A stretch of 32,000 nt of DNA from a bacterium (GCA_021795235.1 JAJYPP010000014.1:28650-60649); one strand, 5' to 3'. Shown: positions 15,586 to 32,000, numbered from the stretch's first letter. Numbers and translations are program-made. Notes: generated by a model from the sequence alone, not told the origin.

Positions 15586-15827
15586 TCGGCCACCTGAGCC
15601 GGCGCCGGGACGGGAGCCATGGTCCCAGACGATTGACTGGTGCCGGAGGCAAGCCCCGTGACCAGCCAGAGAATGAACAGAACGATGAGGAGGAGGCAGC
15701 CCAGGCGGGCCCCTCCCCTCCTCCAGTTGAGCAGGCTGCGCACGATGAGGAGCACGGCGAAGCCGGTGAAGAGGAGCAGGGCCGCCCCCACCACAAGGGT
15801 GAGGACGGCTCCGACCAGCCCGGTCAT
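15582..15827 (-). CDS. small membrane protein (2 TM helices), Spd-like position
   Basis: 81 aa with two hydrophobic helices. ATGA overlaps occur at both ends (with the ssb stop and the tra start), which argues for real translation. Confidence 0.5.
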   Translation of the reverse strand: MTGLVGAVLTLVVGAALLLFTGFAVLLIVRSLLNWRRGGARLGCLLLIVLFILWLVTGLASGTSQSSGTMAPVPAPAQVAE

Positions 15828-16186: not shown

Positions 16187-16365
16187 GGCTGGTCCTCCAG
16201 CTCCGCGACCTGCTCGAGCTCCTGGTCCAGCCGGCGCTCTCGCTCCTCCTCCTCCATCAGCTCGGGGAGCACCGCCCAGATGGGGAAGTGGCATACCCGG
16301 CCCTGTCGCCTGACCCGGTCCCTCCGGTCTCTCTGCTGGTGTAGTCGTCGCCTGTGGTCAGCCAT
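16183..16365 (-). CDS. small hypothetical protein, first gene of the transfer/replication operon
   Basis: 60 aa (MADHRRRLHQQRDRRDRV...EEEERERRLDQELEQVAELEDQP). AGGAGG lies 7 nt upstream of ATG 16365. The stop overlaps the ssb start. No family recognised. Confidence 0.4.
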   Translation of the reverse strand: MADHRRRLHQQRDRRDRVRRQGRVCHFPIWAVLPELMEEEERERRLDQELEQVAELEDQP

Positions 16366-16556: not shown

Positions 16557-17342
16557 CTAGATGTGGAGCGGGATCCTGGGGAACACCAGCGTGGTCTGGT
16601 CCGCCGGCAGGTGGGTCTCGATCACCGCCACCACCAGATCGTCCTGCTTCATCACCCGGTAGAGCTGGAGCACCGGCACCCCATCCGGGATGGAGAGGAC
16701 CTGCTTGATGTTGGGTGTCGGCATGGCGGCCTCCACCACGTCCTCCCCCTCCGCGGCCGGCACCCCCTTGATGGCGAGCACATCGGGGAGCCAGTAGCCG
16801 TCGAGGTCCTCCTCGGACAGCCCCATCTCCTTCTCCACTCTTGGGTGAAGCCAAACCCGGCAGAGAGACGGAGCTCCCTGGGAGTCGAGGCCCGTCGCCT
16901 CCTGCACCAGGACCTCGGTCCCGCCCTCAACCTGGAGCAGCTCCGAGATCCAGGGAGTCGTCGTCATCCGCCGCTCCAGACTCTCCAGGATCGCCGAGAG
17001 ACGGAAGGACCGAGTCGGGGCCCCGTCCTTGGACTCCTGCCTACGCGGAGCGGGGCGCACCATGCCCACCCGGGTCGCGTCCACCCGGTGCCGGTCCGCC
17101 TTGGGATCCCGCACGAAGCTTCCCGCCCCGTGCTCGGCGACCACCATCCCCTCCTGCTTCAGGACCCCGATGGCGCTCCGGACCGTCGTCCTGGTCACCT
17201 GGTAGCGGGCCATGAGCTTGCGTTCGGACGGGAACGCCACCCCGGCGGGCAGCCTCCCATCCTCGATGTCCTTGCGCAGGACATCGGCCAGCTGCTGGTA
17301 CAGCGGCACCGGGCTCTCACGGTCAAGGGTCGGTCTCACCAC
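16557..17342 (-). CDS. GntR-family (HutC-type, KorSA-like) transcriptional repressor
   Basis: PLYQQLADVLRKDIEDGRLPAGVAFPSERKLMARYQVTRTTVRSAIGVLKQEGMVVAEHGAGSFV is a GntR winged HTH. The C-terminal ~170 aa are UTRA-like. GTG start. Confidence 0.85.
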   Translation of the reverse strand: MVRPTLDRESPVPLYQQLADVLRKDIEDGRLPAGVAFPSERKLMARYQVTRTTVRSAIGVLKQEGMVVAEHGAGSFVRDPKADRHRVDATRVGMVRPAPRRQESKDGAPTRSFRLSAILESLERRMTTTPWISELLQVEGGTEVLVQEATGLDSQGAPSLCRVWLHPRVEKEMGLSEEDLDGYWLPDVLAIKGVPAAEGEDVVEAAMPTPNIKQVLSIPDGVPVLQLYRVMKQDDLVVAVIETHLPADQTTLVFPRIPLHI

Positions 17343-17545: not shown

Positions 17546-17595
17546 AGAACTCTCGTGCGGAGTTTGGACAGCAGTTCCCCTGCCGACCCAGTCAT
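17546..17595 (-). pseudogene. remnant of the first ~16 codons of a second TrkA_N-RyR gene copy
   Basis: ATG 17595 gives MTGSAGELLSKLRTRV, compared with MTRSAGELLSKLRTRV at 24263. Homology stops at 17546 and the frame terminates after 26 codons. Confidence 0.6.
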
Positions 17596-17657
17596 CCCTG
17601 TGCCCCCTTCTGCCAGTTGGCACCAGCGCAGTGTCTCGACCAGTGCGGCTGAGTTCG

Positions 17658-20600
17658 CTAGCCATTCCTCTTAGCCACCACCGTAGCCAGGGCGTCCTGC
17701 ACACCGCCAATGAGAGGATGGCCCGGGGGCAGCGCCTGACTGTATATCTCCAGCGCCTCACGGAACAGCCCCTCCGCCTCGTCGAGGCGCCCCTGTCGCG
17801 CGGCCGAAATGGCCAGGTTGCAGAGCGAGGCGGCATTGTCCGGATGGCCAGGGGGCAGCGACTGGCGGCGCATCGCCTGCGCCTCCCGTTGCAGCCCCTC
17901 CGCTTCCTCGTAGCGACCGTGGGCCCTGACCACAACGGCCAGGCTGCTGAGTGAGGTCGCGATGTCCGGATGTCCCGGGGGCAGCGCCTGGCGGCGTATC
18001 TCCAGCGCCTCACGAAGCAGCCCCTCCGCTTCCTCGTAGCGCCCCTGGGCCCTGACCACAATCGCCAGGTTGCTGAGCGAGGCGGCGATGTCCGGATGGG
18101 CCGCCGGCAGCGCATTGCGGACCATCACCAACGCCTCCCGGTACAGCCCCTCCGCTTCCTCGTAGCGCCCCTGGGCAAAGACCGCCTGTGCCAGGTTGTT
18201 GAGCGAGGCGGCGATGGCCGGATGGCTCGGAGGCAGCGCCTGACGGTATGTCTCCAGCGCCTCACGAAGCAGTCCCTCCGCTTCCTCGTAGCGACCCTGG
18301 ACCCTGACCACAATCGCCAGGCTGTTGAGCGAGTTCGCGATGTCCGGATGGCCCGGGGGCAGCGCCTGACGGAGTATCTCCAGCGCCTCCCGGTGCAGCC
18401 CCTCCGCTTCCTCGTAGCGCCCCTGGGCCCTGACCACAACGGCCAAGTTGTTGAGCGAGTTCGCGATGGCCGGATGGCCCTGAGGCAGCGCCAGGCGGCT
18501 TATCTCCAGCGACTCCCGGTGCAGCCCCTCCGCTTCCTCGTAGCGCCCCTGGGCAAAGACCGCCTGTGCCAGGTTGCTGAGCGAGGCGGCGATGTCTGGA
18601 TGGCCCGGGGGCAGCGCCTGGCGAAGTATCTCCAGCGCCTCCCGGTTCAGCCCCTCCGCTTCATCGTGGCGCCCCTGGGCCTGGACCACGCCGGCCAAGT
18701 TGTTGAGCGAGACGGCGATGGCCGGATGCGCCGCCGGCAGCGCCTGGCGGCTTATCTCCAGCGCCTCCCGGTGCAGCCCCTCCGCTTCCTCGTTGCGGCC
18801 CTGGGCAAAGACCGCCTTTGCCAGGTTGTTGAGTGAGTTCGCGATGGCCGGATGGCCCGCCGGCAGGGCCTCGCGGCGAATCTCCAGCGCCTCCCGGTTC
18901 AGCCCCTCCGCTTCCTGGTAGCGCCCCTGGGCCCGGACCACAGTGGCCAGGTTGCTGACCGAGGTGGCGATGTCTGGATGGCCCGGGGGCCGCGCCTTGC
19001 GGAATATCTCCAGCGCCTCCCGGTGCAGCCCCTCCGCTTCCTCGTAGCGCCCCTGGACAAAGACCACACCAGCCAGGTTGTCGAGCGAGGCGCCGTTGAC
19101 CGGATGGCCCGGGGGCAGCGCCTCGCGGCGTATCTCCAGCGCCTCCCGGTGCAGCCCCTTCGCTTCGTCGTAGCGCCCCTGGGCAGAGACCGCCTGTGCC
19201 AGGTTGTTGAGCGAGACGGCGATGGCCGGATGGCCCGGTGGCAGAGCCTGGCGGCCTATCTCCAGCGCCTCCCGGTGCAACCCCTCCGCTTCGCCGTAGC
19301 GCCCCTGGGCCTGGACCACATTGGCCAGGTCGTTGAGCGAGGTGGCGATGGCCGGATGGCCCGCAGGCAGATGGAAGCGGGCCCACACCAGGTTCGCCTC
19401 CGCCCAGGCGCCAGCGAGGGGAAGGAAGCTCATCTGACGCAACAAGCTGCTGACAGCGCTGACGCCTCCGAGCGATCCCCAGTCCACATCGGCTGCGCCC
19501 CACTGGCTCGCTAGCCGCTGGAGGTCCTCTGACACCTCTGCCCGGCCGGCGCCCAGCACCCCCAGCGCCAGCGTCAGGACCCCGGGGTCGCTCGTGGCCA
19601 GCGCCGCGACATGAGCTGGGGCGGCCAGATCAGCCAGAATCCCCTGATGGTCCTCAAGTCGGGCCCGCTGATAGACGCGCTCAGTCAGACTGCGGTCATC
19701 TTCCCCGTCGAAGTAGTCGATGAGGCGGCGTCGCGTGCGTGCTTCCTGGCCTGCCGGGAGGGCGCCGGCGCCAAGGGCAGCGTGCATCAGCGCCTGCATC
19801 CCTGCGTTGCGCAACAGGTACGGCGCCATCCATGTGAGAAGAGGCCGGAGCACGGGGTCCGCCACCCGGGGCCGGTGACTCGCGGGATCGATGGGGTCCG
19901 TCTCGTGGGCCATCAACTCGGCCAGCTCGCGATCCTCAAGCCCCCGGTAGCTGGCCGCCAGAAGGCCAGCCAGCTCTTGGGCCGGATGGCTGTGGTCGGC
20001 GTTGGGAAAGTCAGCGGCAAAGTCCTCGTCCAACTCTCGCAGCAGCGCTTCGAACAGGCGCGCCGGAGTCGGCCGCTGGAGCCGCTCGCGAAGCCTGAGC
20101 GGCAGGTCTTGATGGGTGGCGTGCACCCGCAGGTCCTCCAGCACCAGACGCAGGTACAGCGGGTTCGCGCATGCGGGATTGCCTGTCAGCTCCCCGACCA
20201 GCTCCTTCGGCAGGGCGTGGCGGTAGCTCTTGGTCACCTCCACGATGATCCGCTCCCTTTCCTTCGCCGTGGGTTGGCGGAGCTCCAGCGTCTCGAACAG
20301 CACCAAGCGGCTGCCTCGCTCGTCGGCCAGAGTCGCCACCAGTTGCACCCCCGGGGGCCAGACCAGCGCTCCCAGACGATCGAGGGCACCCGGGGGATCA
20401 ATGAGTTGATCCACCCCGTCGAGCATCAGCACAATCCCCGTGCTCAGCTTGGCCGTGGCCGCGGTGAGCTCGGACGCGAACCACTCCCACGGGTCTGTCG
20501 AGCCCGGGGGTTCTGTCTCCGTCCCCAGGTGCTCGAGCACCCGCACCCGCCAGCTCTCCAGACCGCGCTCCCCATCGGCGCCCACGAAGTGGGTGATGAC

Positions 20601-21488
20601 CGTGGCCCCGAGCTCGTCGCGTGCGCGGCCCGCAACGTGGGCGAGGAGGCTGCTCTTGCCGAGCCCAGAGGCCCCCGTGACCAGGATCGGACCCGGGGCC
20701 TCACCCGCCAGGTGAGCACGCAGCCGGCCAAGCAGCCCGTCCTCAAAGTCCACCAGCGGCAGGTAGCCCTCGAGGCGCACTGCCGCGAAGTGGTCGTGAG
20801 CAGCGTCCCGACGCTGGCGGAGATCCGGCACCTCACTTTGAGGGAACCGCAGATCGATCGCCTTCTCCAGCTCCACCCCCAGCCGATCGCCAAGCTCCGG
20901 CAACGACCGGTACCCGTCCAGGATCACCCGGCCGCTATCGCGCAGCTCCTGCTTCAAGGCTTGGAGCTTGACCGAGGGGCCATCGCGGAACTCGCCCTCA
21001 TCAGCGGCGCGGGCCTGCTGCAACTCCTCGGTCAGCGCCGGGTCGCGCAGGAAGAAGTAAGCGTGCTCGCGCATTTGGGGCGCCTCCAGCACCCCGAAGC
21101 GCATTTCCAGCTCGGTGACGCTCTCCCCCTGGTCAAGCGCCCTAGCGATACGCTCCCCGTAGGCCGAGTCGTGCCGCCTCTCCCAGTAGGCCGCGACGTC
21201 CTCTCGCCTCGGCACCCAGCCATACCGCTCCCCCAGGATGCCCACAAAGAAGGGCGGATGCTCCCGGCAGCGCTCAATCTCCTCCAAGCACACCTCGACG
21301 GTCCGCCCGTTCTTGGCGTCCTCTTCCTCGATCCCCCACCTCAGGTCGATCTCCACGAAGGCCACGCCGCGCTCTCGACAGTGCGCCCTCAGCGCCGGGA
21401 AGACATGGGTCAACAGCCAGCTGCGCTCGTCCTCCATGTCGCGAAACGTCGACGACACAAACACCCGCACCTCGCGCTCCGTACTCAT
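17658..21488 (-). CDS. STAND/NLR-like ATPase, copy 1: DUF4062-like N-domain, P-loop NTPase (NACHT/NB-ARC-like) and 13 x 42-aa TPR
   Basis: Same length (1276 aa) as copy 2, and residues 1-583 are identical to it. The start is placed at MSTEREVRVF (ATG 21488, ATGA overlap with the upstream ORF) rather than the track start 21647. Walker A is GASGLGKS and Walker B is IVLMLDGVD. The TPR units resemble GHPDIAxSLNNLAxVVxAQGRYEEAEGLxREALEIxRQALPP. Confidence 0.85.
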   Translation of the reverse strand: MSTEREVRVFVSSTFRDMEDERSWLLTHVFPALRAHCRERGVAFVEIDLRWGIEEEDAKNGRTVEVCLEEIERCREHPPFFVGILGERYGWVPRREDVAAYWERRHDSAYGERIARALDQGESVTELEMRFGVLEAPQMREHAYFFLRDPALTEELQQARAADEGEFRDGPSVKLQALKQELRDSGRVILDGYRSLPELGDRLGVELEKAIDLRFPQSEVPDLRQRRDAAHDHFAAVRLEGYLPLVDFEDGLLGRLRAHLAGEAPGPILVTGASGLGKSSLLAHVAGRARDELGATVITHFVGADGERGLESWRVRVLEHLGTETEPPGSTDPWEWFASELTAATAKLSTGIVLMLDGVDQLIDPPGALDRLGALVWPPGVQLVATLADERGSRLVLFETLELRQPTAKERERIIVEVTKSYRHALPKELVGELTGNPACANPLYLRLVLEDLRVHATHQDLPLRLRERLQRPTPARLFEALLRELDEDFAADFPNADHSHPAQELAGLLAASYRGLEDRELAELMAHETDPIDPASHRPRVADPVLRPLLTWMAPYLLRNAGMQALMHAALGAGALPAGQEARTRRRLIDYFDGEDDRSLTERVYQRARLEDHQGILADLAAPAHVAALATSDPGVLTLALGVLGAGRAEVSEDLQRLASQWGAADVDWGSLGGVSAVSSLLRQMSFLPLAGAWAEANLVWARFHLPAGHPAIATSLNDLANVVQAQGRYGEAEGLHREALEIGRQALPPGHPAIAVSLNNLAQAVSAQGRYDEAKGLHREALEIRREALPPGHPVNGASLDNLAGVVFVQGRYEEAEGLHREALEIFRKARPPGHPDIATSVSNLATVVRAQGRYQEAEGLNREALEIRREALPAGHPAIANSLNNLAKAVFAQGRNEEAEGLHREALEISRQALPAAHPAIAVSLNNLAGVVQAQGRHDEAEGLNREALEILRQALPPGHPDIAASLSNLAQAVFAQGRYEEAEGLHRESLEISRLALPQGHPAIANSLNNLAVVVRAQGRYEEAEGLHREALEILRQALPPGHPDIANSLNSLAIVVRVQGRYEEAEGLLREALETYRQALPPSHPAIAASLNNLAQAVFAQGRYEEAEGLYREALVMVRNALPAAHPDIAASLSNLAIVVRAQGRYEEAEGLLREALEIRRQALPPGHPDIATSLSSLAVVVRAHGRYEEAEGLQREAQAMRRQSLPPGHPDNAASLCNLAISAARQGRLDEAEGLFREALEIYSQALPPGHPLIGGVQDALATVVAKRNG
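17661..19364. repeat. 126-bp tandem coding repeat array (13 TPR units plus a C-terminal cap) of NLR copy 1
   Basis: A 42-codon periodicity is visible in the protein. All frames on both strands stay open across the array. Confidence 0.9.
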
Positions 21489-21859
21489 GGTTCCTCCACC
21501 ACCCGATAGGTCTTGCTGAAGACGCCGCTTCCGACGACCCCGACATCGCCGGGGGCGTACTGAACCAGCCAGTCCCCCGCCTGTCCGACTAGCACCCCAC
21601 CGGACGGCAATTCGACGCTGATCGGCGCCTGCTCCGCCGAGATGCACACAGCCCAGATCGTTTCAGCGCGCGCGACGTACCGCCCGTCATCTCCCCAGTT
21701 CGTGCCGACAACCGGCCGATATCGCGCCGCGAAGACTGCCCGCTCGACCGGCCAGTGCTCCCCTTCCACCCCGGTCAGGATCGCGTCCCCCGCAACGTAG
21801 GGGAACCAGCCCCTCCCGGGTGGCCACGGTCCCTGCTGCCCTGGCGAAGGTGGCCTCCA
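21485..21859 (-). pseudogene. PGDYG-like small gene, copy 1: 5'-truncated and frameshifted
   Basis: Matches 28153-28526. It has a 4-G run (21800-21803) where copy 2 has 3 G (28468-28470). This splits ...EATFARAAGTVATREGLVP and YVAGDAILTGVEGEHWPVER... into different frames. Homology, and hence the N-terminus and promoter, ends at 21859. Confidence 0.65.
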
Positions 21860-21879
21860 GAGAACTGGACATGAGGGGG

Positions 21880-22418
21880 TCAAGCGGCGCGTTCCGAATG
21901 GTGCACCGCCACCTGATAGGTGACGGGGAGATCGGTCCCCGGGTAGGCGGGGTGGAGCTGGATGAGGTCAGCGCAGGGGCCGCGTAGAGCTCCGCGGTGC
22001 AGGGGGAGTCGGGCGGATCGAGGCTTAGGGTCATCCCCTCAGCAGTGGTGCGGATCTCGCCCGACAGCTCGGCGAAGGACCGCGGCATCTGGCGGACGTC
22101 GTCAGCACTCTGGTAGTGCGGCGCCAGCCGCTCCAGCAGCCACTCCGCGGCGATGTAGGCGGTGAGCTTGACCCGGTCCAGGATCGCCTTCTGCTGCAGC
22201 TTCGTCACGTCGTGATGGCCCACGGTCTCGAGGGGAACGTGACTGGGCAGGCGATGGCACTGCTCAAGTAGCCGGGCCAACTCCGTCTCCAGTTCCCGGA
22301 TCTTCTTCACCCCACTCCCGTGGGCGGACTTGAGGCCGCGAGCGCTGTGGGAGGAGTCCCGGCGCTCATCCAAGCGCGCCTGTCCCAGCTCCGCCCATCG
22401 GCTCACTTCGCTATCCAA
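21880..22418 (-). pseudogene. C-terminal remnant of a transposase-like gene (frameshifted)
   Basis: ...KLTAYIAAEWLLERLAPHYQSADDVRQMPRSFAELSGEIRTTAEGMTLSLDPPDSP continues in another frame as RGALRGPCADLIQLHPAYPGTDLPVTYQVAVHHSERAA-stop (TGA at 21882-21880). This resembles, from memory only, the C-terminus of a protein family usually annotated as transposase in high-GC Gram-positives. No N-terminal or DDE part is present. Confidence 0.45.
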
Positions 22419-22457: not shown

Positions 22458-24263
22458 TCACCTCAAGATCTGGCCGGGAGCATCGGGCACATGACAGACG
22501 TACCCAGCCCTACTCAACTGGTGCGGCCACGCCCTCACAATGTCCCGATTCTTTTCCTTTCCAAGCTCACTCAGAGCGCTCCATTCCACCAAGTCCGGAT
22601 GAAGACGTGCGGCTTCATCGCGGACCTCTCCAAAGCGCCACCCTTGGCGCTTCTTCTGCACAGTCCACCGCTCATGTTCCACCCGCGCCAGTTGCTCAAC
22701 GAACTCCGGCCACATGTCAGCGCCAATACTACTGTCCCCTGGTCGCACCCGAGCCACGCGATAACCAGCGCCCGCAAGCGAGCTGAATATCGAGTAGGCT
22801 TGCTCGCGGTTCGTCTCCTTCAGCCCTAGGTCCAACTCCTCCCACGGTTTGTGACTGGGCTTCTCGGGATCCAGCCTCCCCAACCTCCGTGCCTCATCAT
22901 CCAGAAAGTCCCCGTGAACCTGAATAGCAAGGCGCTCGAACAACGTTCCGCCCATCACATGTGCATACTCACATGCTCGTGCCTCAGCATCGACAAGAAC
23001 TACGCCGAACGTCTGGAGGGCCTGCCCCTGATCGGCGCTCCCGGATGTGCACACCACCTTGAGCCCCTTGAATTCGCGTTGCTCCGCAAGTGCCAGCGCC
23101 ATCGAAAGACCGGCGTCTCCCGTCATGTCGCACGCGACAATGCCGTCCGGCGCATCGGCATCCGAGCCAACCGCCCACTTGACGCGCGCATCGACTTCGG
23201 TGTCCGGGACGTCCGCCGCGCATGGCATGACCGTCACCAGCTCCGGATCGAGGTCGCGCTTCACCTTCTCAGCGAAGTCCGCGGCACCCATGCCGCCTAC
23301 GCGCAGGTCCAGGTGGGATGGTCCGCCAACGCTTGAGGTGGTCGTCGCCATCCATCGTCCCAGATCGCGCACGACTTGAGTCGCAAGCGGACCGGTTCCA
23401 ATGAGAGCGACTTTATATCTTGTAATCTTTGCGAGCCCCTCCGTGACTGTTTGCACTACCTGTTGTGCAGCAACTTCACCTGGTGAAAAGGCGTCCACGT
23501 GCACGGCGGCCGAGTCCTTCTGTCGACTCCGTGCATACACGGCCCGCAGGCGGTCGCAAGCCTCAGGGTCGGGCATCCTCGCGATGACGACCCGCGGAGT
23601 CCGACGTACGCCCCCGGTCTGGGGAACGGCTGCATGAAGCGCCGAAACGATAGCCAAGTTGGTCGCGGCAGTGCCAGTCAGGCAGAACAGCTTCGCGGCC
23701 TGCCCGATCCCCGCCTGCTTCAGCACCAATGGATCTCGGGCGTCCGACAAGATGACCGGAATGCCAAGTGTGCGAGCTGCCGTCACTCCCGCTGCGAAAG
23801 GATTCATCTCGACAGCCACAACAGCGGTATGGGGCGGCGCGGTCTGAACAAGCCGGATACCAACACTCCCCAGCCCACAGACCACAATGTGCCCCCGGTA
23901 CGTCGCGATGCGGGCGCGGTCATACGTTCGTCGGAAGGCAATAGTGAGCAGTCCAATTACGGTTGTGCCCGTGACGACCACCGCCACCAGTCGGGCCAAC
24001 TGAAGTTCCCACGACAATGCTCCAGGCGGCTTCTGGTAGTCGAAGACAAACAGGGATACCGCGTCATACACAGCCGAGGGGACACTCACTCCTTGTGCCC
24101 AGTACCCAAATGAACCCAGGGTGAAAGCAGACCCGGCCGATAAAAGGAGTGCGAACGGCCACCACGGCTGTGCGGCAGTTGACGCGCGGCGTCTGAGGTA
24201 CCTCACGTGGGGCAGAACTCTCGTGCGGAGTTTGGACAGCAGTTCACCCGCCGACCTAGTCAT
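22458..24263 (-). CDS. 2TM membrane protein with a TrkA_N/RCK NAD-binding domain, a second Rossmann-like domain and C-terminal RyR repeats
   Basis: 601 aa. TM1 is WWPFALLLSAGSAFTLGSFGYW. A pore-helix-like segment SAVYDAVSLFVFDY has no TVGYG filter. TM2 is LARLVAVVVTGTTVIGLLTIAF. Glycine loop is HIVVCGLGSVGIRLV, with a second one at KVALIGTGPLATQVV. RyR-type repeats are ...KPWEELDLGLKETNREQAYSIFSSLAGAGY and EHERWTVQKKRQGWRFGEVRDEAARLHPDLVEWSALSELGKEKNRDIV. Confidence 0.8.
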   Translation of the reverse strand: MTRSAGELLSKLRTRVLPHVRYLRRRASTAAQPWWPFALLLSAGSAFTLGSFGYWAQGVSVPSAVYDAVSLFVFDYQKPPGALSWELQLARLVAVVVTGTTVIGLLTIAFRRTYDRARIATYRGHIVVCGLGSVGIRLVQTAPPHTAVVAVEMNPFAAGVTAARTLGIPVILSDARDPLVLKQAGIGQAAKLFCLTGTAATNLAIVSALHAAVPQTGGVRRTPRVVIARMPDPEACDRLRAVYARSRQKDSAAVHVDAFSPGEVAAQQVVQTVTEGLAKITRYKVALIGTGPLATQVVRDLGRWMATTTSSVGGPSHLDLRVGGMGAADFAEKVKRDLDPELVTVMPCAADVPDTEVDARVKWAVGSDADAPDGIVACDMTGDAGLSMALALAEQREFKGLKVVCTSGSADQGQALQTFGVVLVDAEARACEYAHVMGGTLFERLAIQVHGDFLDDEARRLGRLDPEKPSHKPWEELDLGLKETNREQAYSIFSSLAGAGYRVARVRPGDSSIGADMWPEFVEQLARVEHERWTVQKKRQGWRFGEVRDEAARLHPDLVEWSALSELGKEKNRDIVRAWPHQLSRAGYVCHVPDAPGQILR

Positions 24264-24325
24264 CCCTGTGCCCCCCTCTGCCAGGTGGCACCAGCACAGT
24301 GTCTCGACCAGTGTGTCCCAGTTCG

Positions 24326-27300
24326 CTAGCCATTCCTCTTAGCCACCACCATAGCCAGGTAGTCCTGCGCGCTGGCGATGAGAGGATGGCCCGGGGGCAG
24401 CGCCTGACGGTATATCGCCAACGCTTCCCGGTACAGCCCCTCCGCTTCGTCGTAGCGCCCCTGATCCGAGACCACACTGGCCAGGTTGCTGACCGACATC
24501 GCGATGAGAGGATGGCCCGGGGGCAGCGCCTGGCGGCGCATGTCCAGCGCCTCCCGGTATAGCCCCTCCGCTTCGTCGTATCGCCCCTGAGCCGAGACCA
24601 CAATCGCCAGGTTGCTGACCGACGTGGCAATGTCCGGATGGCCCGGGGGCAGCGCCTGGCGGCTTATCTCCAGCGCCTCCCGAAGCAGCCCCTCCGCTTC
24701 GTCGTAGCGCCCTTGGGCAAGCACCGAATCTGCCAGGTTGTTGAGCGAGGCGGCGATGGCCCGATGGCCCGGGGGCAGCGCCTCGCGGCGCATCTCCAGC
24801 GCCTCCCGGTGTAGCCCCTCCGCCTCGTCGTTGCGCCCCTGGGCAAAGACCGCCTCTGCCAGGTTGTTGAGCGAGTTCGCGATGTCCGGATGGCCCGGGG
24901 GCAGCGCCTGGCGGCGCATGTCCAGCGCCTCCCGGTACAGCCCCTCCACTTCGCCGTAGCGCCCCTGGGCCTGGACCACATTGGCCAGGTTGCTGACCGA
25001 GGTGGCGATGTCCGGATGGCCCGGGGGCAGCGCCTGGCGGCGCATCTCCAGCGCATCCATGAGCAGCCCCTCCGCTTCCTCGTAGCGACCCTGGGCAAAG
25101 ACCGCCTGTGCCAGGTTGTTGAGCGAGACGGCAATGTCCGGATGGCCCGCCGGCAGCGCCTGGCGGCGTACAGCCAGCGCCTCCCGTTGCAGCCCCTCCG
25201 CTTCCTCGTAGCGACCCTGATCCGAGAACACACCGCCCAGGTTGCTGAGCGAGACGGCAATGTCCGGATGGCCCGCCGGCAGAGCCTGGCGATATATCTC
25301 CAGCGCCTCCTTGTACAGCCCCTCCGCTTCGTCGTAGCGCCCCTGATGCGAGAACACACCGCCCAGGTTGCTGACCGACTTCGCAATGTCCGGATGGCCC
25401 GGGGGCAGCGCCTTGCGGAATATCTCCAGCGCCTCCCGTTGCAGCCCCTCCGCTTCCTCGTAGCGACCCTGGGCAAAGACCGCCTGTGCCAGGTTGTTGA
25501 GCGAGTTCGCGATGTCCGGATGTCCCGGGGGCAGCGCCTGACGGCGCATCTCCAGCGCATCCATGAGCAGCCCCTCCGCTTCGCCGTAGCGCCCCTGGGC
25601 GAAGACCACAGTGGCCAGGTTGCTGACCGAGGCGGCAATGTCCGGATGGCCCAGGTGCAGAGCCTGGCGATATATCTCCAGCGCCTCCCGGCGCAGCCCC
25701 TCCGCTTCGCCGTAGCGACCCTGATCCGAGACCACACCGGCCAGGTTGCTGACCGAGGCGGCGATGGCCGGATGGCCCGCCGGCAGCGCCTGGCGGAGCA
25801 TCTCCAGCGCCTCCTTGTACAGCCTCTCCGCCTCCTCGTAGCGACCCTGGGCCCTGACCACATTGGCCAGGTTGCTGAGCGAGGTGGCGATGTCCGGATG
25901 GCCCGCCGGCAGCGCCTGGCGGCGTACAGCCAGCGCCTCCCGTTGCAGCCCCTCCGCTTCCTCGTAGCGACCCTGGGCAAAGACCGCCTGTGCCAGGTTG
26001 TTGAGCGAGTTCGCGATGTCCGGATGTCCCGGGGGCAGGTGGAAGCGGGCCCATGCCAGGTTCGCCTCCGCCCAGGCACCGGCGAGGGGAAGGAAGCTCA
26101 TCCCATACAACAAGCTGCTGACAGCGCTGACGCCGCCGAGCGATCCCCAGTCCACATCGGCTTCGCCCCAGTGGCTTGCAAGCTGCTGGAGGTCCTCTGA
26201 CACCTCTGCCCGGCCGGCGCCCAGCACCCCCAGCGCCTGCGTCAGGACCCCGGGGTCGCTCGTGGCCAGCGCGGCGACATGAGCTGGGGCGGCCAGATCA
26301 GCCACAATCCCCTGGTGGTCCTCAAGTCGGGCCCGCTGATAGAGGCGCTCAGTCAGGCCACGGTCATCTTCCCCGTCGAAGTAGTCGATGAGGTGGCGTC
26401 GCGTGGGTGCTTCCTGGCCTGCCGGGAGGGCGCCGGCGCCAAGGGCAGCGTGCATCAGCGCCTGCATCCCTGCGTTGCGCAACAGGTACGGCGCCATCCA
26501 TGTGAGAAGAGGCCGGAGCACGGGGTCCGCCACCCGGGGCCGGTGACTCGCGGGATCGATGGGGTCCGTCTCGTGGGCCATCAACTCGGCCAGCTCGCGA
26601 TCCTCAAGCCCCCGGTAGCTGGCCGCCAGAAGGCCAGCCAGCTCTTGGGCCGGATGGCTGTGGTCGGCGTTGGGAAAGTCAGCGGCAAAGTCCTCGTCCA
26701 ACTCTCGCAGCAGCGCTTCGAACAGGCGCGCCGGAGTCGGCCGCTGGAGCCGCTCGCGAAGCCTGAGCGGCAGGTCTTGATGGGTGGCGTGCACCCGCAG
26801 GTCCTCCAGCACCAGACGCAGGTACAGCGGGTTCGCGCATGCGGGATTGCCTGTCAGCTCCCCGACCAGCTCCTTCGGCAGGGCGTGGCGGTAGCTCTTG
26901 GTCACCTCCACGATGATCCGCTCCCTTTCCTTCGCCGTGGGTTGGCGGAGCTCCAGCGTCTCGAACAGCACCAAGCGGCTGCCTCGCTCGTCGGCCAGAG
27001 TCGCCACCAGTTGCACCCCCGGGGGCCAGACCAGCGCTCCCAGACGATCGAGGGCACCCGGGGGATCAATGAGTTGATCCACCCCGTCGAGCATCAGCAC
27101 AATCCCCGTGCTCAGCTTGGCCGTGGCCGCGGTGAGCTCGGACGCGAACCACTCCCACGGGTCTGTCGAGCCCGGGGGTTCTGTCTCCGTCCCCAGGTGC
27201 TCGAGCACCCGCACCCGCCAGCTCTCCAGACCGCGCTCCCCATCGGCGCCCACGAAGTGGGTGATGACCGTGGCCCCGAGCTCGTCGCGTGCGCGGCCCG

Positions 27301-28156
27301 CAACGTGGGCGAGGAGGCTGCTCTTGCCGAGCCCAGAGGCCCCCGTGACCAGGATCGGACCCGGGGCCTCACCCGCCAGGTGAGCACGCAGCCGGCCAAG
27401 CAGCCCGTCCTCAAAGTCCACCAGCGGCAGGTAGCCCTCGAGGCGCACTGCCGCGAAGTGGTCGTGAGCAGCGTCCCGACGCTGGCGGAGATCCGGCACC
27501 TCACTTTGAGGGAACCGCAGATCGATCGCCTTCTCCAGCTCCACCCCCAGCCGATCGCCAAGCTCCGGCAACGACCGGTACCCGTCCAGGATCACCCGGC
27601 CGCTATCGCGCAGCTCCTGCTTCAAGGCTTGGAGCTTGACCGAGGGGCCATCGCGGAACTCGCCCTCATCAGCGGCGCGGGCCTGCTGCAACTCCTCGGT
27701 CAGCGCCGGGTCGCGCAGGAAGAAGTAAGCGTGCTCGCGCATTTGGGGCGCCTCCAGCACCCCGAAGCGCATTTCCAGCTCGGTGACGCTCTCCCCCTGG
27801 TCAAGCGCCCTAGCGATACGCTCCCCGTAGGCCGAGTCGTGCCGCCTCTCCCAGTAGGCCGCGACGTCCTCTCGCCTCGGCACCCAGCCATACCGCTCCC
27901 CCAGGATGCCCACAAAGAAGGGCGGATGCTCCCGGCAGCGCTCAATCTCCTCCAAGCACACCTCGACGGTCCGCCCGTTCTTGGCGTCCTCTTCCTCGAT
28001 CCCCCACCTCAGGTCGATCTCCACGAAGGCCACGCCGCGCTCTCGACAGTGCGCCCTCAGCGCCGGGAAGACATGGGTCAACAGCCAGCTGCGCTCGTCC
28101 TCCATGTCGCGAAACGTCGACGACACAAACACCCGCACCTCGCGCTCCGTACTCAT
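24326..28156 (-). CDS. STAND/NLR-like ATPase, copy 2: DUF4062-like N-domain, P-loop NTPase (NACHT/NB-ARC-like) and 13 x 42-aa TPR
   Basis: 1276 aa. N-terminus reads VRVFVSSTFRDMEDERSWLLTHVFPALR...FFVGILGERYGWVP (DUF4062-like). Walker A GASGLGKS is encoded at 27320-27343. Walker B is IVLMLDGVD. A helical linker follows, then the TPR array from about aa 709. The ATG overlaps the stop of the upstream small gene. Confidence 0.9.
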   Translation of the reverse strand: MSTEREVRVFVSSTFRDMEDERSWLLTHVFPALRAHCRERGVAFVEIDLRWGIEEEDAKNGRTVEVCLEEIERCREHPPFFVGILGERYGWVPRREDVAAYWERRHDSAYGERIARALDQGESVTELEMRFGVLEAPQMREHAYFFLRDPALTEELQQARAADEGEFRDGPSVKLQALKQELRDSGRVILDGYRSLPELGDRLGVELEKAIDLRFPQSEVPDLRQRRDAAHDHFAAVRLEGYLPLVDFEDGLLGRLRAHLAGEAPGPILVTGASGLGKSSLLAHVAGRARDELGATVITHFVGADGERGLESWRVRVLEHLGTETEPPGSTDPWEWFASELTAATAKLSTGIVLMLDGVDQLIDPPGALDRLGALVWPPGVQLVATLADERGSRLVLFETLELRQPTAKERERIIVEVTKSYRHALPKELVGELTGNPACANPLYLRLVLEDLRVHATHQDLPLRLRERLQRPTPARLFEALLRELDEDFAADFPNADHSHPAQELAGLLAASYRGLEDRELAELMAHETDPIDPASHRPRVADPVLRPLLTWMAPYLLRNAGMQALMHAALGAGALPAGQEAPTRRHLIDYFDGEDDRGLTERLYQRARLEDHQGIVADLAAPAHVAALATSDPGVLTQALGVLGAGRAEVSEDLQQLASHWGEADVDWGSLGGVSAVSSLLYGMSFLPLAGAWAEANLAWARFHLPPGHPDIANSLNNLAQAVFAQGRYEEAEGLQREALAVRRQALPAGHPDIATSLSNLANVVRAQGRYEEAERLYKEALEMLRQALPAGHPAIAASVSNLAGVVSDQGRYGEAEGLRREALEIYRQALHLGHPDIAASVSNLATVVFAQGRYGEAEGLLMDALEMRRQALPPGHPDIANSLNNLAQAVFAQGRYEEAEGLQREALEIFRKALPPGHPDIAKSVSNLGGVFSHQGRYDEAEGLYKEALEIYRQALPAGHPDIAVSLSNLGGVFSDQGRYEEAEGLQREALAVRRQALPAGHPDIAVSLNNLAQAVFAQGRYEEAEGLLMDALEMRRQALPPGHPDIATSVSNLANVVQAQGRYGEVEGLYREALDMRRQALPPGHPDIANSLNNLAEAVFAQGRNDEAEGLHREALEMRREALPPGHRAIAASLNNLADSVLAQGRYDEAEGLLREALEISRQALPPGHPDIATSVSNLAIVVSAQGRYDEAEGLYREALDMRRQALPPGHPLIAMSVSNLASVVSDQGRYDEAEGLYREALAIYRQALPPGHPLIASAQDYLAMVVAKRNG
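24329..26032. repeat. 126-bp tandem coding repeat array (13 TPR units plus a cap) of NLR copy 2
   Basis: 42-aa periodicity. Internal duplicated blocks are present: EAEGLLMDALEMRRQALPPGHPDIA occurs twice and EAEGLQREALAVRRQALPAGHPDIA occurs twice. Confidence 0.9.
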
Positions 28157-28602
28157 GGTTCCTCCACCACCCGATAGGTCTTGCTGAAGACGCCGCTTCC
28201 GACGACCCCGACATCGCCGGGGGCGTACTGAACCAGCCAGTCCCCCGCCTGTCCGACTAGCACCCCACCGGACGGCAATTCGACGCTGATCGGCGCCTGC
28301 TCCGCCGAGATGCGCACAGCCCAGATCGTTTCAGCGCGCGCGACGTACCGGCCGTCATCTCCCCAGTTCGTGCCGACAACCGGCTGATATCGCGCCCCAA
28401 AGGCTGCCCGCTCGACGGGCCAGTGCTCCCCCTCCACCCCGGTCAGGATCGCGTCCCCCGCGACGTAGGGAACCAGCCCCTCCCGGGTGGCCACGGTCCC
28501 TGCTGCCCTGGCGAAGGTGGCCTCCACCGGCAGACCCCGCTTGCGCACACGCACGGCCCCCGGCTGCTGCGCTAGGTCCGACCCGGGATCAAAGCTGTTC
28601 AC
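28153..28602 (-). CDS. small PGDYG-like protein (intact copy), first gene of the NLR cassette
   Basis: ...RKRGLPVEATFARAAGTVATREGLVPYVAGDAILTGVEGEHWPVERAAFGARYQPV...LVGQAGDWLVQYAPGDVGVVGSGVFSKTYRVV matches my recollection of the PGDYG family (Pfam PF14083) of bacteria and phages. The GTG 28602 start is uncertain and internal GTGs are possible. The stop overlaps the NLR ATG. Confidence 0.6.
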   Translation of the reverse strand: MNSFDPGSDLAQQPGAVRVRKRGLPVEATFARAAGTVATREGLVPYVAGDAILTGVEGEHWPVERAAFGARYQPVVGTNWGDDGRYVARAETIWAVRISAEQAPISVELPSGGVLVGQAGDWLVQYAPGDVGVVGSGVFSKTYRVVEEP

Positions 28603-28623
28603 GGCTGTTCACGGCTGTTCACG
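28594..28623. repeat. three perfect tandem copies of a 10-bp unit (gctgttcacg) at the 5' end of the cassette
   Basis: Copies at 28594-28603, 28604-28613 and 28614-28623. On the coding strand the unit reads CGTGAACAGC x3. The last copy supplies the GTG used as the ORF start. Confidence 0.9.
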
Positions 28624-29292
28624 CCCCCTGCCGGAGTTGGACCCACTTCAGCAGGCCCATGTGTGTCCCTGATCTGGCCTCTCCCGTCCAACCCTGCACT
28701 CGCGCCGATGGCTGGCAAACTCATGACGACGAATCGCGGAGCGGAGCCGTCCGCAGCGCCCAGGGACACATCCAGTAGCCCCGGCGACAGATGATAGGCG
28801 GTCAGGACGGCGTGCGCCCCCAGGCCACTGCCAGCTGTGACGCCGCAGAAGATCTCCGATTGACACAACCAAGGCCCTGGATCTCATTGGCGGCGACTGC
28901 CCACCACAAGGCTGGACCGCCTTGTCACCGGACTTCTGGAGCCGCACTTGGACCGTGTATCTCTTGCCAGAGACAACGGCCGTCAGATAAGGGGGCGGAA
29001 GGTGGGCCAGGCTGGTGCTGGTTGCCAACCCCTTGAAGTAGCAACTGTCGAAGGCGGGCGCCGGAGCGGACGCGGGGAAGGTGACCAGCATCGTGCTCGA
29101 CCGCCACGATGGTCGTCCTCGCACTTGGGACGTCGAGATGCCGGACCCACCAAATGCGGCGGCATCGACTTCGTGGCAGCCCCTCGCGAGGCCATGGGCC
29201 GATCCTCATCTGCAGAAGGCGGGTGTGCATTGTCATCATGGACTTACACTCTCTGCCTTCCTCAGGGTCTCGATCGGTTGGGGAGATTGACA

Positions 29293-29781
29293 TTGACCAC
29301 GGCTCACACCACAGCCCAGCGCCTGGCCAGTTCAGTCGACACGCCACCAGAGAAGCTGGCGAAGCTCGCCGAGAGTCGGGATGCTGAGGTCAGGCGACGG
29401 GTGGCGCACCGGCCAACCTGCCCGCCCCAGACGGTCGGCCTTCTGGTGGGAGACGTCGACCCTTGGGTACGCTGTGCAGCAGGCGGCAATCCCTCGATCT
29501 CAGCCGACCTACTCGCGCGCCTGGCCGATGATGTCGACGATCGCGTCCGCGGAGCCGTGGCCGGGAACCCTGTCGTGCCCGACACGCTGCTGCGCCGGAT
29601 GGCGACTGATTCGTCCGCCTGGGTGCGAGCAAACGTGGTGATGAATCCCGCTTGCCCGACGGAACTCCGAGAGGCGCTGGCCGACAGCCCTGACTCCGAA
29701 CTCGTTCGACTGGCTGCCTCAGGGACGATGCAGAGTATGGAGCGCTCCCAACGGCGATCCAGGAGCGACCTCGTCGGCTAG
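29293..29781 (+). CDS. HEAT/leucine-rich-repeat-variant (LRV)-like repeat protein
   Basis: Repeats of about 24 aa: LAKLAESRDAEVRRRVAHRPTCP / LLVGDVDPWVRCAAGGNPSIS / LARLADDVDDRVRGAVAGNPVVP / LRRMATDSSAWVRANVVMNPACP / LADSPDSELVRLAAS. The start is uncertain: TTG 29293 or 29287 after GGGAGA. The track start 28948 is not credible. Confidence 0.45.
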   Translation: MTTAHTTAQRLASSVDTPPEKLAKLAESRDAEVRRRVAHRPTCPPQTVGLLVGDVDPWVRCAAGGNPSISADLLARLADDVDDRVRGAVAGNPVVPDTLLRRMATDSSAWVRANVVMNPACPTELREALADSPDSELVRLAASGTMQSMERSQRRSRSDLVG

Positions 29782-29947: not shown

Positions 29948-29997
29948 CGGTTTCCTAAACCGCGTGTCGCAGGTTCAAGTCCTGCCGGGGGCACCAG
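29948..29997. repeat. attR: displaced 3' part of tRNA-Arg (50-bp direct repeat)
   Basis: Exact copy of 11682-11731. No 5' tRNA half lies upstream, so this is not a functional tRNA. Confidence 0.85.
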
Positions 29998-30706: not shown

Positions 30707-31093
30707 TTGTACGCTTACGTCGATGCGGACGACCGTCACCACCTGTCCTGCCGCCAACTCCTGGAGACCCATCCAGGGCCGCTGATAGTCCCCGAACTGG
30801 TGGTCACCGAGGTCGCGTACCTGATCGCGACCCGGTTGGGTACCGACCCTGAGGTTCGCTTCCTCGGCGACCTCGCCAGCGGAGCCTTCTCGGTCGAACC
30901 GGTGCACCCCGCCGACTGGCTGAGGATCGCCGAACTCGTATCCGGGTACCGGACCCTGCCGCTCGGCACGGTGGACGCATCCGTCATCGTGGCCGCGGAA
31001 CGCCTTGGGATCACCAACATCGCCACCCTCGACCGCCGCCACTTCGGCGTCCTTCGGCCCAAACACACTCCAGCCTTCAGCATCCTGCCCTGA
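30707..31093 (+). CDS. PIN-domain toxin (VapC family)
   Basis: ...PLIVPELVVTEVAYLI...LPLGTVDASVIVAAERLGITNIATLDRRHF. The frame is open from 30653 and encodes AVLVDAGPLYAYVDADD upstream of and through the first canonical start (TTG 30707), so the true start is unresolved. Confidence 0.75.
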   Translation: MYAYVDADDRHHLSCRQLLETHPGPLIVPELVVTEVAYLIATRLGTDPEVRFLGDLASGAFSVEPVHPADWLRIAELVSGYRTLPLGTVDASVIVAAERLGITNIATLDRRHFGVLRPKHTPAFSILP

Positions 31094-31586: not shown

Positions 31587-32000
31587 ATGGCCCGCTACCT
31601 GGCGGACAAATCGGCTCTTGCCCGGGTTCACTTGGCACCAGTGGCCAGTCGGTTGGAGTCGCTGTTCCTCGCCGGTGAGGTTGCTACCTGCGGCATCGTT
31701 GACTTGGAGCTGCTCTTCAGTGCCAGAAGCACCGTCGACTACCTGGCCATCCTCGCTGACCGGCGCAGCCTGCCGCGCGCCGAGGTCGGCGAGGCGGGGA
31801 TAGAACGGGCCGTCGTGGTCCAAACCGCTCTGGCCCGCAAGGGCCAACATCGCAGCCTGTCGATCCCTGACCTTCTAATTGCGGCCGCCGCAGAAGCCGC
31901 AGGGCTCACAGTCCTCCACTATGACTCCGATTTCGACCTGGTGGCCGAGGTCACAGGGCAGCCGACCGAGTGGGTCGTGCCCAAGGGCAGCTGTCCCTAG
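31587..32000 (+). CDS. PIN-domain toxin (VapC family)
   Basis: MARYLADKSALARV...CGIVDLELLFSARS...SIPDLLIAAAAEAAGLTVLHYDSDFDLV shows the VapC pattern. The stop is at the window end. Confidence 0.85.
   Translation: MARYLADKSALARVHLAPVASRLESLFLAGEVATCGIVDLELLFSARSTVDYLAILADRRSLPRAEVGEAGIERAVVVQTALARKGQHRSLSIPDLLIAAAAEAAGLTVLHYDSDFDLVAEVTGQPTEWVVPKGSCP

Follow-up and report, generated by a model that had tools for sequence, protein, structure and literature searches.

The locus studied here raises the question of whether three tightly linked genes on the minus strand of a bacterial contig, which encode a PGDYG-family protein, a NOD-like receptor (NLR; NOD, nucleotide-binding oligomerisation domain) and a membrane protein with TrkA_N and RyR domains, act as one system, and by what means. 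The genes occupy positions 22458-28602 of a stretch of 32,000 nucleotides (GCA_021795235.1 JAJYPP010000014.1:28650-60649), the whole of which is called the window below and to which coordinates refer unless another locus is named. A preliminary description, made from the sequence alone, had proposed them as a candidate defence system in which the DUF4062 domain of the NLR, or a nucleotide product of it, gates the membrane protein. The reading favoured by the present analysis, which we hold to be somewhat probable, is that the three genes form a Thoeris-like system for abortive infection or conflict, which an actinomycete integrative and conjugative element (AICE) carries among its cargo. What appears to be new is the linkage of a NIR-domain (DUF4062) NLR with PGDYG and TrkA_N-RyR genes, unlike the architecture of the NLR, which is a further member of the NIR-NLR kind described since 2026 and is not by itself novel.

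Layout of the cassette

The open reading frame (ORF) calls confirmed three minus-strand genes at the coordinates given earlier, and the domains of their products were judged against Pfam gathering cut-offs.

28153-28602 (minus strand): PGDYG-family protein, 149 amino acids (aa); PF14083, 66.2 bits
24326-28156 (minus strand): NLR-A, 1276 aa; NIR/DUF4062 domain, STAND P-loop NTPase, helical linker and an array of 13 TPR_10 units of 42 aa
22458-24263 (minus strand): membrane protein with two transmembrane (TM) segments, 2TM-TrkA_N-RyR, 601 aa; Pfam TrkA_N and RyR

The stop codon of the PGDYG gene and the start codon of the NLR gene overlap (ATGA at 28153-28156), and a spacer of 62 nt separates the NLR stop from the ATG of the 601-aa protein. 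The ORFs, their strand and both junctions are thus as first described, and the five domain calls made at that time (PGDYG, DUF4062, TPR, TrkA_N and RyR) all exceed the Pfam gathering cut-offs. The expectation that the cassette would match no known system was likewise borne out. With PADLOC-DB 2.0 the three window proteins gave no system-level match, only a generic tetratricopeptide repeat (TPR) model and a marginal mad8 match (E = 0.002); among them there was no match to ThsA or ThsB of Thoeris, and the NLR had no system-specific hidden Markov model (HMM) match to Avs1-5 or other named STAND systems. Homologous cassette parts from other loci gave domain-level matches at most in PADLOC, which has no model for TrkA_N-RyR proteins, the PGDYG fusion described below or SLATT-like partners.

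Linkage of the cassette genes in other genomes

The neighbourhoods of the homologues were examined from the RyR, PGDYG and NLR sides of the cassette, with 80 RyR-side loci retrieved from species-representative genomes by means of the family alignment, 86 PGDYG-side loci, 60 of which include 1.5 kb or more of flanking sequence on one side, and L171, L172 and L173 among the loci reached from the NLR. Genes for NIR or TIR proteins were found within ±10 kb in 10 of 12 loci encoding 2TM-TrkA_N-RyR proteins and in 27 of 51 loci encoding other RyR proteins, as against none of eight RyR-less TM-TrkA_N controls (Fisher p = 0.0004 and 0.002, respectively, versus the controls). With NIR present in 8.7% of genomes, chance alone would account for about 0.05 NIR-positive loci; the TIR calls that were sampled were confirmed by Pfam in 10 of 10 cases.

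A full and independent triad was found at locus L132, where genes for a NIR-NACHT-10xTPR_10 protein, a TrkA_N-RyR protein and a PGDYG protein follow one another, co-oriented and closely spaced, in an order that differs from that of the window and with identities to the window proteins of 39% for the NLR, 42% for PGDYG and about 24-35% locally for the effector. Pairs of the genes recur elsewhere. PGDYG is followed by an NLR gene in L095, L113 and L172, the last of which opens with a gene for a 701-aa membrane protein with weak SLOG and SLATT matches and has overlapping junctions, and PGDYG and NLR genes are convergent in L117 and L119. A TrkA_N-RyR gene precedes PGDYG in L111 with overlapping stop and start codons, and such a gene accompanies a NIR-NLR gene in L016, L033 and L052 and lies 5.8 kb downstream of the NLR gene, as a TrkA_N/RyR gene, in L171. 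In L116 a single ORF of 800 aa comprises PGDYG, a linker of about 10 residues, TM1, a helix, TM2, a Rossmann domain and RyR; none of the 147 top-ranked family representatives scanned carries a fused PGDYG, NIR or TIR domain, so that this fusion is rare. TIR or TIR-SIR2 genes adjoin the TM-TrkA_N-RyR family in L004, L072, L041, L027 and L008, in the order TrkA_N-RyR, TIR-SIR2 and nSTAND1-WD40 in L004 and with a co-oriented TIR gene 40 nt upstream in L072. The linked loci range in GC content from 43 to 69%. Conserved synteny, which the preliminary description had named as a check on its proposal, is therefore borne out by the L132 triad together with the pairs and the fusion listed above. Given that the linkage has survived sequence divergence and permutation of gene order, and that a natural fusion exists, these comparisons indicate that the cassette genes are probably coupled in function.

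Two of the loci hold further genes. In L132 a gene for a Peptidase_C14 (caspase)-Sel1 protein (862-2265) lies directly upstream of the triad, which is consistent with a defence-island setting. Locus L173 (Grimontella sp. AG753, 4229-12552) carries two convergent genes for DUF4062 NLRs of 945 and 1235 aa, with a gene for a 582-aa multi-TM protein 24 nt upstream of the first; the 90%-identity cluster to which the enterobacterial NLR of this locus belongs comprises 137 sequences, and the protein could serve as a tractable model.

The NLR and its predicted NADase domain

The following features were located in the gene for NLR-A.

27557-28135 (minus strand): NIR (DUF4062) TIR-like NADase domain, aa 8-200, with the candidate catalytic E128 (codon 27773-27775)
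26087-27409 (minus strand): STAND NTPase (NOD) module, aa 250-690, from sequence motifs
27320-27343 (minus strand): Walker A motif GASGLGKS, aa 272-279, including K278
27077-27097 (minus strand): Walker B motif LMLDGVD, aa 354-360
24329-26038 (minus strand): TPR_10 array of 13 units of 42 aa and a terminal partial unit, with 126-nt periodicity

The N-terminal domain matches DUF4062 (PF13271) over aa 8-95 with 52.5 bits against a cut-off of 24.7. DUF4062 has been renamed NIR and is a TIR-like NADase that converts NAD+ to ADP-ribose (ADPR) and nicotinamide and requires a single Glu (three 2026 preprints, including 10.64898/2026.09.04.749371). Such single-Glu-dependent cleavage has been described for Swarozyc, PsAvs2, Vulcan, Vesta and TEP1, and anti-phage abortive infection for Swarozyc, Evangelion, Vulcan, Vesta and the NIR-STAND-TPR protein PsAvs2 (2026 DUF4062 preprints); none of the three preprints mentions RyR, TrkA or PGDYG. 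The preliminary description had recognised the domain by a GILGERYGWVP signature. The domain call stands, but the Glu of that signature, E87, is not conserved, being E, Q or G among the homologues in an alignment of 16 NIR domains. E87 was accordingly rejected as the catalytic residue. Because E87 is variable and E128 is conserved, E128 was taken as the candidate catalytic Glu; E128, S123 and T125 of the motif S-V-T-E-L-E-M are each conserved in 15 of the 16 aligned domains. E128 would fit the catalytic Glu in the "acidic-SYT region" described for Evangelion, and from the description of the motif rather than from a joint alignment we infer that it is equivalent to E97/E108 of the characterised NIR enzymes.

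Both nucleotide-binding motifs named in the preliminary description, Walker A with K278 and Walker B, were found at motif level. The P-loop domain of the window falls below the family thresholds (NACHT, 18.2 bits for copy B against a cut-off of 26.7; AAA_16, 26 against 32.6; AAA_22 likewise sub-threshold), and homologues in L009 and L055, which exceed the NACHT cut-off with 37.1 and 33.8 bits, give a strong phmmer match to the window NOD. C-terminally, Pfam TPR_10 matches 13 stretches (502.7 bits against a cut-off of 27.5), which together with the 126-nt periodicity bears out the 13 near-identical 42-aa units first described. The protein thus has the tripartite layout of an NLR, with DUF4062 as effector domain, a P-loop NOD and 13 TPR_10 units at the C-terminus. 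The TPR array is the presumed ligand sensor. Variation among its units is confined to unit positions 10, 17, 20, 32 and 39, both within and between NLR-A (24329-26038) and its paralogue NLR-B (17661-19370); each of the five positions has an entropy of more than 2 bits and the remaining scaffold is nearly invariant, a pattern that suggests repeat shuffling or diversifying selection on a sensor surface.

We found 158 NLR homologues at E<=1e-20, nearly all with DUF4062 and most with NACHT and/or TPR, the closest being 47% identical. A match to the NCBIfam FxSxx_TPR model (303 bits; cut-off 300) is limited to the TPR region and was not taken as family membership. The nearest characterised counterpart, PsAvs2 (NIR-STAND-TPR; Le Mouellic et al. 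2026, bioRxiv 10.64898/2026.09.04.749371), resembles the window NLR in its N-terminal NIR domain, where a conserved Glu is catalytic in PsAvs2 and a candidate in the window, in the STAND module at its centre, in the repeat sensor at its C-terminus and in its defence or mobile context. PsAvs2 is a single protein that depletes NAD+, whereas the window NLR is translationally coupled to PGDYG with an RyR/RCK membrane protein downstream; unlike PsAvs2, the window NLR joins a NACHT-like NOD to 13 TPR_10 units, an NPHP3-like array in which certain positions are hypervariable, and no PADLOC Avs model matches it.

The membrane protein and its RyR domain

The gene for the 601-aa protein contains the following features.

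23934-24164 (minus strand): membrane region with TM1 (aa 34-55), a re-entrant or pore-helix-like segment (aa 63-74) and TM2 (aa 87-110), from hydropathy
23538-23888 (minus strand): TrkA_N/RCK Rossmann domain; PF02254, 51.8 bits against a cut-off of 23.8; predicted local distance difference test score (pLDDT) 70-80
23859-23876 (minus strand): dinucleotide-binding signature GLGSVG, aa 130-135
23808-23822 (minus strand): TrkA_N motif VVAVE, with the acidic E152 ending beta-2
22479-22946 (minus strand): RyR (Repeat12-like) domain, aa 440-595; PF02026, 57.2 bits against a cut-off of 27.4

In the AlphaFold2 (AF2) model of this protein, which has a mean pLDDT of 55.7 from an alignment three sequences deep, only the TrkA_N and RyR domains are usable. 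The RyR domain matches the R12 region of the animal ryanodine receptors RyR1-3 with E about 1e-21. Its presence agrees with the preliminary description, but of the two repeats claimed there only one is Pfam-significant (aa 520-588), and the preceding segment (about aa 440-505) resembles a degenerate half-repeat. A word-indexed search returned only six relatives and would have made the protein a near-orphan, a view rejected on the strength of an exhaustive profile search, which placed it in a large family of 2,419 representatives of 50%-identity clusters at E<=1e-30 and 16,395 relatives at E<=0.001; word-indexed searches may falsely suggest orphan status for divergent multi-domain proteins. Among the 147 representatives scanned, out of the 150 ranked highest, the TM-TrkA_N module is present in all and the RyR domain in 146. 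A plasmid collection searched with the 601-aa effector gave no match.

The order TM1, pore-helix-like segment, TM2 and TrkA_N/RCK domain with GxGxxG is shared with RCK-gated 2TM K+ channels (Kch, MthK, TrkA-associated); unlike them, the window protein has neither a TVGYG-type filter nor a match to Ion_trans_2 (PF07885), and it has an extra middle region and the C-terminal RyR domain. On this architecture we propose that it may be a nucleotide-gated pore or channel effector.

What the RyR domain might bind is suggested by two phage proteins from independent 2026 preprints. RyDEP is an RyR-domain glycosidase crystallised with its product ADPR bound, with key residues H75, W78, H100 and D117 (PMC13232231). 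RyR Tad (gp68 of phage vB_PatP_CB1), whose contact residues are H129/W132, K147/H154 and K170/D171, has as ligands 1''-3' glycocyclic ADPR (gcADPR; dissociation constant, Kd, 43 nM), 1''-2' gcADPR and cyclic ADPR (cADPR) (10.64898/2026.06.04.730250). Binding to RyR domains has been measured for 2'cADPR, 3'cADPR and cADPR (PMC13232231; 10.64898/2026.06.04.730250), and neither preprint mentions a NIR-RyR, TrkA or PGDYG connection. When the window protein was aligned with gp68, the six contacts fell on H530, W533, R548, H555, K571 and N572. H530, W533, H555 and K571 are identical, R548 is a conservative replacement of K147, and N572, at the position of D171 and of D117 of RyDEP, is the sole non-conservative change; the RyDEP residues were placed by way of RyR Tad and the identical residue spacing. 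The His-Asp catalytic dyad of the RyDEP type is therefore absent, N572 standing at the position of the Asp general acid, and this replacement suggests that the window domain may be a binder or sensor rather than a hydrolase. It is also the likelier ligand sensor of the protein, instead of or besides TrkA_N. The window protein shares with both phage proteins the PF02026 Repeat12-like domain and the His-x-x-Trp, His and Lys contacts. RyDEP and RyR Tad are small, soluble dimers with which phages destroy or sequester the signals of their hosts, whereas the window protein is encoded by the host or the integrated element, has 601 aa, a membrane region and an RCK domain, is tied to a NADase gene and has Asn for the catalytic Asp. 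A tblastn search of a phage collection with the RyR domain did not recover RyDEP (gp78 of DyoEdafos).

The PGDYG protein

PGDYG matches PF14083 with 66.2 bits against a cut-off of 27, and 53 homologues were found.

28207-28221 (minus strand): PGDxG motif, within the PGDYG protein

The AF2 model (pLDDT 93.3) is all-beta with an internal two-fold repeat. A Foldseek search of the PDB with this model found no significant match (best E = 0.3; TM 0.25 or lower), and a phage collection searched with PGDYG gave one partial match. From the natural fusion in L116 we infer a physical association with the effector, and we propose that PGDYG may be a cytoplasmic accessory subunit of the membrane effector, which might act in gating, assembly or autoinhibition. 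Its commonest setting is behind a translationally coupled family of about 440 aa that shows only recurrent, sub-threshold SLATT_1/DUF4231 matches; PGDYG is also found after a LexA-like Peptidase_S24 protein, and in one locus a patatin phospholipase follows it. These settings are seen in loci L085, L086, L102, L113, L119, L125, L126, L130 and the P0015 locus. PGDYG may serve small membrane effectors in general as an accessory.

Other RyR-domain effectors and SLATT-like partners

RyR domains also occur at the C-terminus of a second effector type, a large family of proteins of about 850-1030 aa with RelA_SpoT, TPR-like helices and LSDAT_prok (SLOG 'in TRPM') ahead of RyR, some with an N-terminal NUDIX domain. 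The representatives in L051 and L067 and the SLOG part of that in L007 were called by reading of the sequence and the RyR HMM rather than by Pfam.

L009, 1233-3782: RelA_SpoT-SLOG-RyR protein
L055, 3448-6021: RelA_SpoT-SLOG-RyR protein
L016, 6044-9133 (minus strand): RelA_SpoT-SLOG-RyR protein
L007, 5763-8708: RelA_SpoT-SLOG-RyR protein
L051, 7862-10381: RelA_SpoT-SLOG-RyR protein
L067, 7796-10417: RelA_SpoT-SLOG-RyR protein

In PVC bacteria, among other lineages, these genes stand directly beside NIR- or TIR-STAND genes. They adjoin NIR-NACHT-TPR/WD40 genes by overlap in L016 and across gaps of 4-45 nt in L009, L055 and L067, lie 262 and 496 nt from genes of that kind in L051 and L059, and in L032 are found 21 nt from a TIR-NB-ARC-TPR gene. 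By their domains they look like alarmone-synthetase-type toxic effectors with two putative (c)ADPR-type sensor domains, and in PADLOC they gave domain-level partial matches only. A third architecture, of about 910-1060 aa, joins a central AAA ATPase (GPPGSGKS) to a C-terminal RyR domain (L009, 7718-10459; L027, 7691-10879).

Effectors of the SLOG/SMODS-SLATT class (PF18181 SLATT_1, PF18171 LSDAT_prok) are 2TM conflict proteins with nucleotide sensors. Membrane proteins of a SLATT/SLOG-like kind pair with PGDYG and NLR genes and have recurrent Pfam matches, each of them sub-threshold, and a SLATT/SLOG identity of these partners is suspected as a lead only. With the SLOG/SMODS-SLATT effectors, and by analogy only with the eukaryotic TRPM2 and RyR channels, the window protein may share the principle of a nucleotide sensor on a membrane effector; unlike the former, it has neither SLATT nor SLOG, and the Pfam matches of the partners are weak.

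A second NLR copy without intact partners

A self-alignment of the window matched 24214-28526 to 17546-21859 and revealed a second copy of the NLR gene with remnants on either side.

17658-21488 (minus strand): NLR-B, paralogous sensor, 1276 aa from the homologous ATG, from self-alignment and protein comparison
21485-21859 (minus strand): PGDYG-B remnant, with the first ~25 codons missing and an insertion of 1 nt near 21803, from nucleotide alignment
17546-17657 (minus strand): spacer and 5' remnant of the membrane-effector gene, ~17 codons with an ATG at 17595, aligned to 24214-24325

The first 583 aa of NLR-A and NLR-B are 100% identical and their TPR arrays 73% identical. PGDYG-B is likely a pseudogene. 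Its 5' part is fused in frame to ~190 unrelated codons in a chimeric ORF of 243 aa (21687-22418), which also occurs in contigs L001 and L002 of two other assemblies; the unrelated part has no Pfam or NCBIfam match. Since the PGDYG-B remnant and the effector stub flank NLR-B, both paralogues are read as descendants of units with PGDYG, NLR and membrane genes in that order, of which copy A alone is intact. With its own PGDYG and effector genes lost, NLR-B is left as an orphan sensor allele and presumably signals via the single intact effector. The duplication claimed in the preliminary description is thus present as regards the NLR, but the duplicated unit lacks a second intact effector. An origin of copy B by simple tandem duplication was rejected, given the intact effector after A, the remnant after B and the unrelated sequence between them. 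Opposite both NLR genes, on the plus strand, lie antisense ORFs of 632 aa (19611-21509 and 26279-28177), which are taken to be high-GC reading-frame artefacts and not genes.

The integrated element

A perfect 50-bp direct repeat (11682-11731 and 29948-29997; blastn) bounds an element of ~18.3 kb, whose sites and backbone genes are as follows.

11682-11731 (plus strand): attL, 3' part of tRNA-Arg(CCT) (tRNA 11655-11731), from ARAGORN and the 50-bp repeat
29948-29997 (plus strand): attR, perfect 50-bp copy of the tRNA-Arg 3' end, from blastn
11839-12945: tyrosine integrase
14218-15585: FtsK/SpoIIIE translocase
15824-16294: single-stranded DNA-binding protein (SSB)
16557-17342: GntR/UTRA regulator

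The att repeats at a tRNA site, the tyrosine integrase, the FtsK/SpoIIIE translocase and the GntR-type regulator are the features of an AICE, and with the SSB they uphold the earlier statement that the cassette is carried on a mobile, conjugative element. A Rep-like ORF at 13103-14314 had no Pfam match. Both NLR copies lie inside the att repeats, and most of the cargo consists of the cassette and the second NLR copy. The host is a high-GC bacterium (67%) and, judging by the AICE-type element, probably an actinomycete. Within the element, a gene for a 277-aa LRV/HEAT-repeat protein (28948-29781, plus strand) separates the cassette from attR and lies on the strand opposite to the cassette. Just beyond attR are a Pfam-confirmed gene for a PIN-domain (VapC-like) toxin (30707-31093, plus strand) and a second ORF (31587-32000, plus strand) that is PIN-like by eye only.

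A proposed pathway and its alternatives

In the mechanism that we propose, the hypervariable array of 13 TPR units would bind an invader protein, as its architecture and the characterised Avs and NLR proteins suggest, and the STAND NTPase would then oligomerise. Clustering would activate the NIR domain, whose E128 is known here by sequence only, to cleave NAD+, with ADPR or possibly a cyclic ADPR isomer as the product. The receiver of this product would be the RyR domain at the C-terminus of the 601-aa protein, while TrkA_N/RCK may also sense the fall in NAD(H), and PGDYG would serve as a cytoplasmic subunit of the effector. The ligand would open a filter-less 2TM pore, the membrane would depolarise, and growth would stop or the cell would die before the invader could spread. 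Of this chain, the domains, the conserved residues and the linkage of the genes are established for the cassette, and the NADase chemistry of NIR and the nucleotide binding of RyR domains are known from other proteins; the connections between the steps are our proposal. The earlier model, in which a nucleotide product of DUF4062 gates the membrane protein, now has a biochemical precedent that supports it by analogy, since NIR yields ADPR, RyR domains bind gcADPR and cADPR, and the pocket residues are conserved in the 601-aa protein.

The proposed logic resembles that of Thoeris (ThsB TIR with ThsA SIR2-SLOG or TM-Macro), where a TIR-superfamily enzyme makes an ADPR-derived signal and a separate effector, membrane-embedded in some types, reads it. 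A further link is that TIR_2 proteins, one of which also matches ThsB_TIR, directly flank relatives of the 601-aa protein. In contrast to Thoeris, the producer in the window would be a NIR-NLR and not ThsB, the receiver RyR (with TrkA_N) and not SLOG or Macro, and PGDYG is an extra component. Within the immunity of NLR and TIR-superfamily NADases, the putative receiver domain, membrane effector and accessory protein appear to be new. Full-text literature searches returned no paper containing "PGDYG" and none with both "RyR domain" and "SLOG", and the papers retrieved on bacterial and phage RyR domains, or on RyR together with Thoeris, described no RyR effector on the host side.

Several observations weigh against the proposed pathway. 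On the side of the enzyme, the characterised NIR systems act alone by bulk NAD+ depletion with no second effector needed (2026 DUF4062 preprints), and no NIR enzyme is known to make a signalling nucleotide. On the side of the receiver, the reported Kd values of RyR domains are for gcADPR and cADPR, not for linear ADPR (10.64898/2026.06.04.730250). The preliminary description had placed two TM helices around a pore-helix-like segment and noted the lack of a K+ filter. TM2 and the absence of a T-V-G-Y-G filter between the hydrophobic segments stand, the latter itself being a point against a channel, but only TM2 is strongly hydrophobic (19-residue Kyte-Doolittle mean >1.5), TM1 is milder, and the AF2 helices of this region (H35-57, H61-75 and H84-121) have a pLDDT below 50. 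As to linkage, the loci were annotated by simple ORF calls and home-built HMMs of which a sample was validated by Pfam; 2 of the 12 TM-TrkA_N-RyR loci and 24 of the 51 other RyR loci have no visible NADase neighbour; contig L003, of only 3.4 kb, has a close homologue without an adjoining NLR; and most PGDYG genes occur in other contexts, so that PGDYG is not specific to the cassette.

The main alternative, which we nevertheless consider unlikely, is that the NLR is a self-sufficient, Avs-like NAD+ depleter, and that the RyR protein and PGDYG are a safeguard or regulator against autoimmunity. They would mop up or clear any ADPR-type product that leaks, or buffer ion or redox homeostasis, in the manner of MisB, VstB or the phage RyR sponges. 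It draws on the ability of characterised NIR proteins to deplete NAD+ and arrest growth without a partner effector, and on Vesta, whose conserved operon partner VstB is dispensable for defence (2026 DUF4062 preprints). The known RyR-domain proteins, moreover, act to end signalling, either as sponges or as a glycosidase, and in the window NLR-B persists without partners of its own. A soluble sponge, however, needs neither a 2TM segment nor an RCK domain, the change from Asp to Asn removes the residue required for RyDEP catalysis, and stoichiometric sequestration could not offset bulk hydrolysis of NAD+, while related loci fuse RyR to modules typical of toxic effectors, namely RelA_SpoT and SLOG as in ThsA.

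The proposed chain of NLR, nucleotide and RyR effector might also operate with another trigger, in element-element or kin conflict (exclusion of AICEs or plasmids, mycelial allorecognition) or in developmental cell death, which we regard as quite improbable. The cassette makes up about two-thirds of the 18.3-kb AICE, the host has a high GC content (67%) and, by its AICE-type element, may be an actinomycete, and regular, hypervariable TPR_10 arrays are set on identical NOD modules. Hypervariable arrays with an identical NOD resemble NLRs that serve in fungal allorecognition and STAND systems that diversify in multicellular bacteria. Every NIR system that has been tested is nevertheless anti-phage, and homologous cassettes are found in unicellular lineages and archaea as well.

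That the three genes are independent neighbours brought together by the general clustering of defence genes on mobile elements is very unlikely, for although ~20% of NIR genes lie near known defence genes anyway (2026 DUF4062 preprints), a caspase-Sel1 gene adjoins the L132 triad and many RyR and PGDYG loci have no other partners, the genes are translationally coupled in the window (ATGA) and overlap at their junctions in L111 and L172, PGDYG and TrkA_N-RyR are naturally fused, the linkage is kept through permutation of gene order at 24-42% identity, the co-occurrence is specific to RyR-containing relatives (none of eight RyR-less ones), and both paralogous units of the window bear traces of the same two flanking genes.

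Implications

A wider generalisation, which we put forward tentatively and consider doubtful as a whole, is that RyR (Repeat12) domains may be the native receivers of ADP-ribose-derived signals made by TIR and NIR enzymes in prokaryotic effectors, be these pores, RelA/SpoT-type toxins or AAA proteins. NIR-NLRs would then be signal generators and not merely NAD+ drains, the cassette would be one member of a widespread, undescribed pathway from NLR to nucleotide to RyR with PGDYG as a new effector subunit, and the control that (c)ADPR exerts over RyR and TRPM2 channels in eukaryotes would descend from this pathway or mirror it.

If the proposed pathway is correct, NLR-type NADases would act via a diffusible product and a dedicated membrane executioner, and the Avs/NLR and Thoeris paradigms would merge. 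A testable function would be available for PGDYG (PF14083) and for the 2TM-TrkA_N-RyR family with its more than 2,400 50%-identity clusters. The neighbourhood rule that links NIR or TIR genes to RyR genes is the most interesting outcome of the analysis, and it could be used to mine RelA_SpoT-SLOG-RyR, AAA-RyR and further systems. The biochemistry of the RyR domain is known only from anti-defence proteins of phages, and its regulatory function in animal channels is poorly understood; as a nucleotide receptor the domain would acquire a part in host immunity, and the cassette would provide a bacterial model for the action of (c)ADPR on ryanodine receptors.

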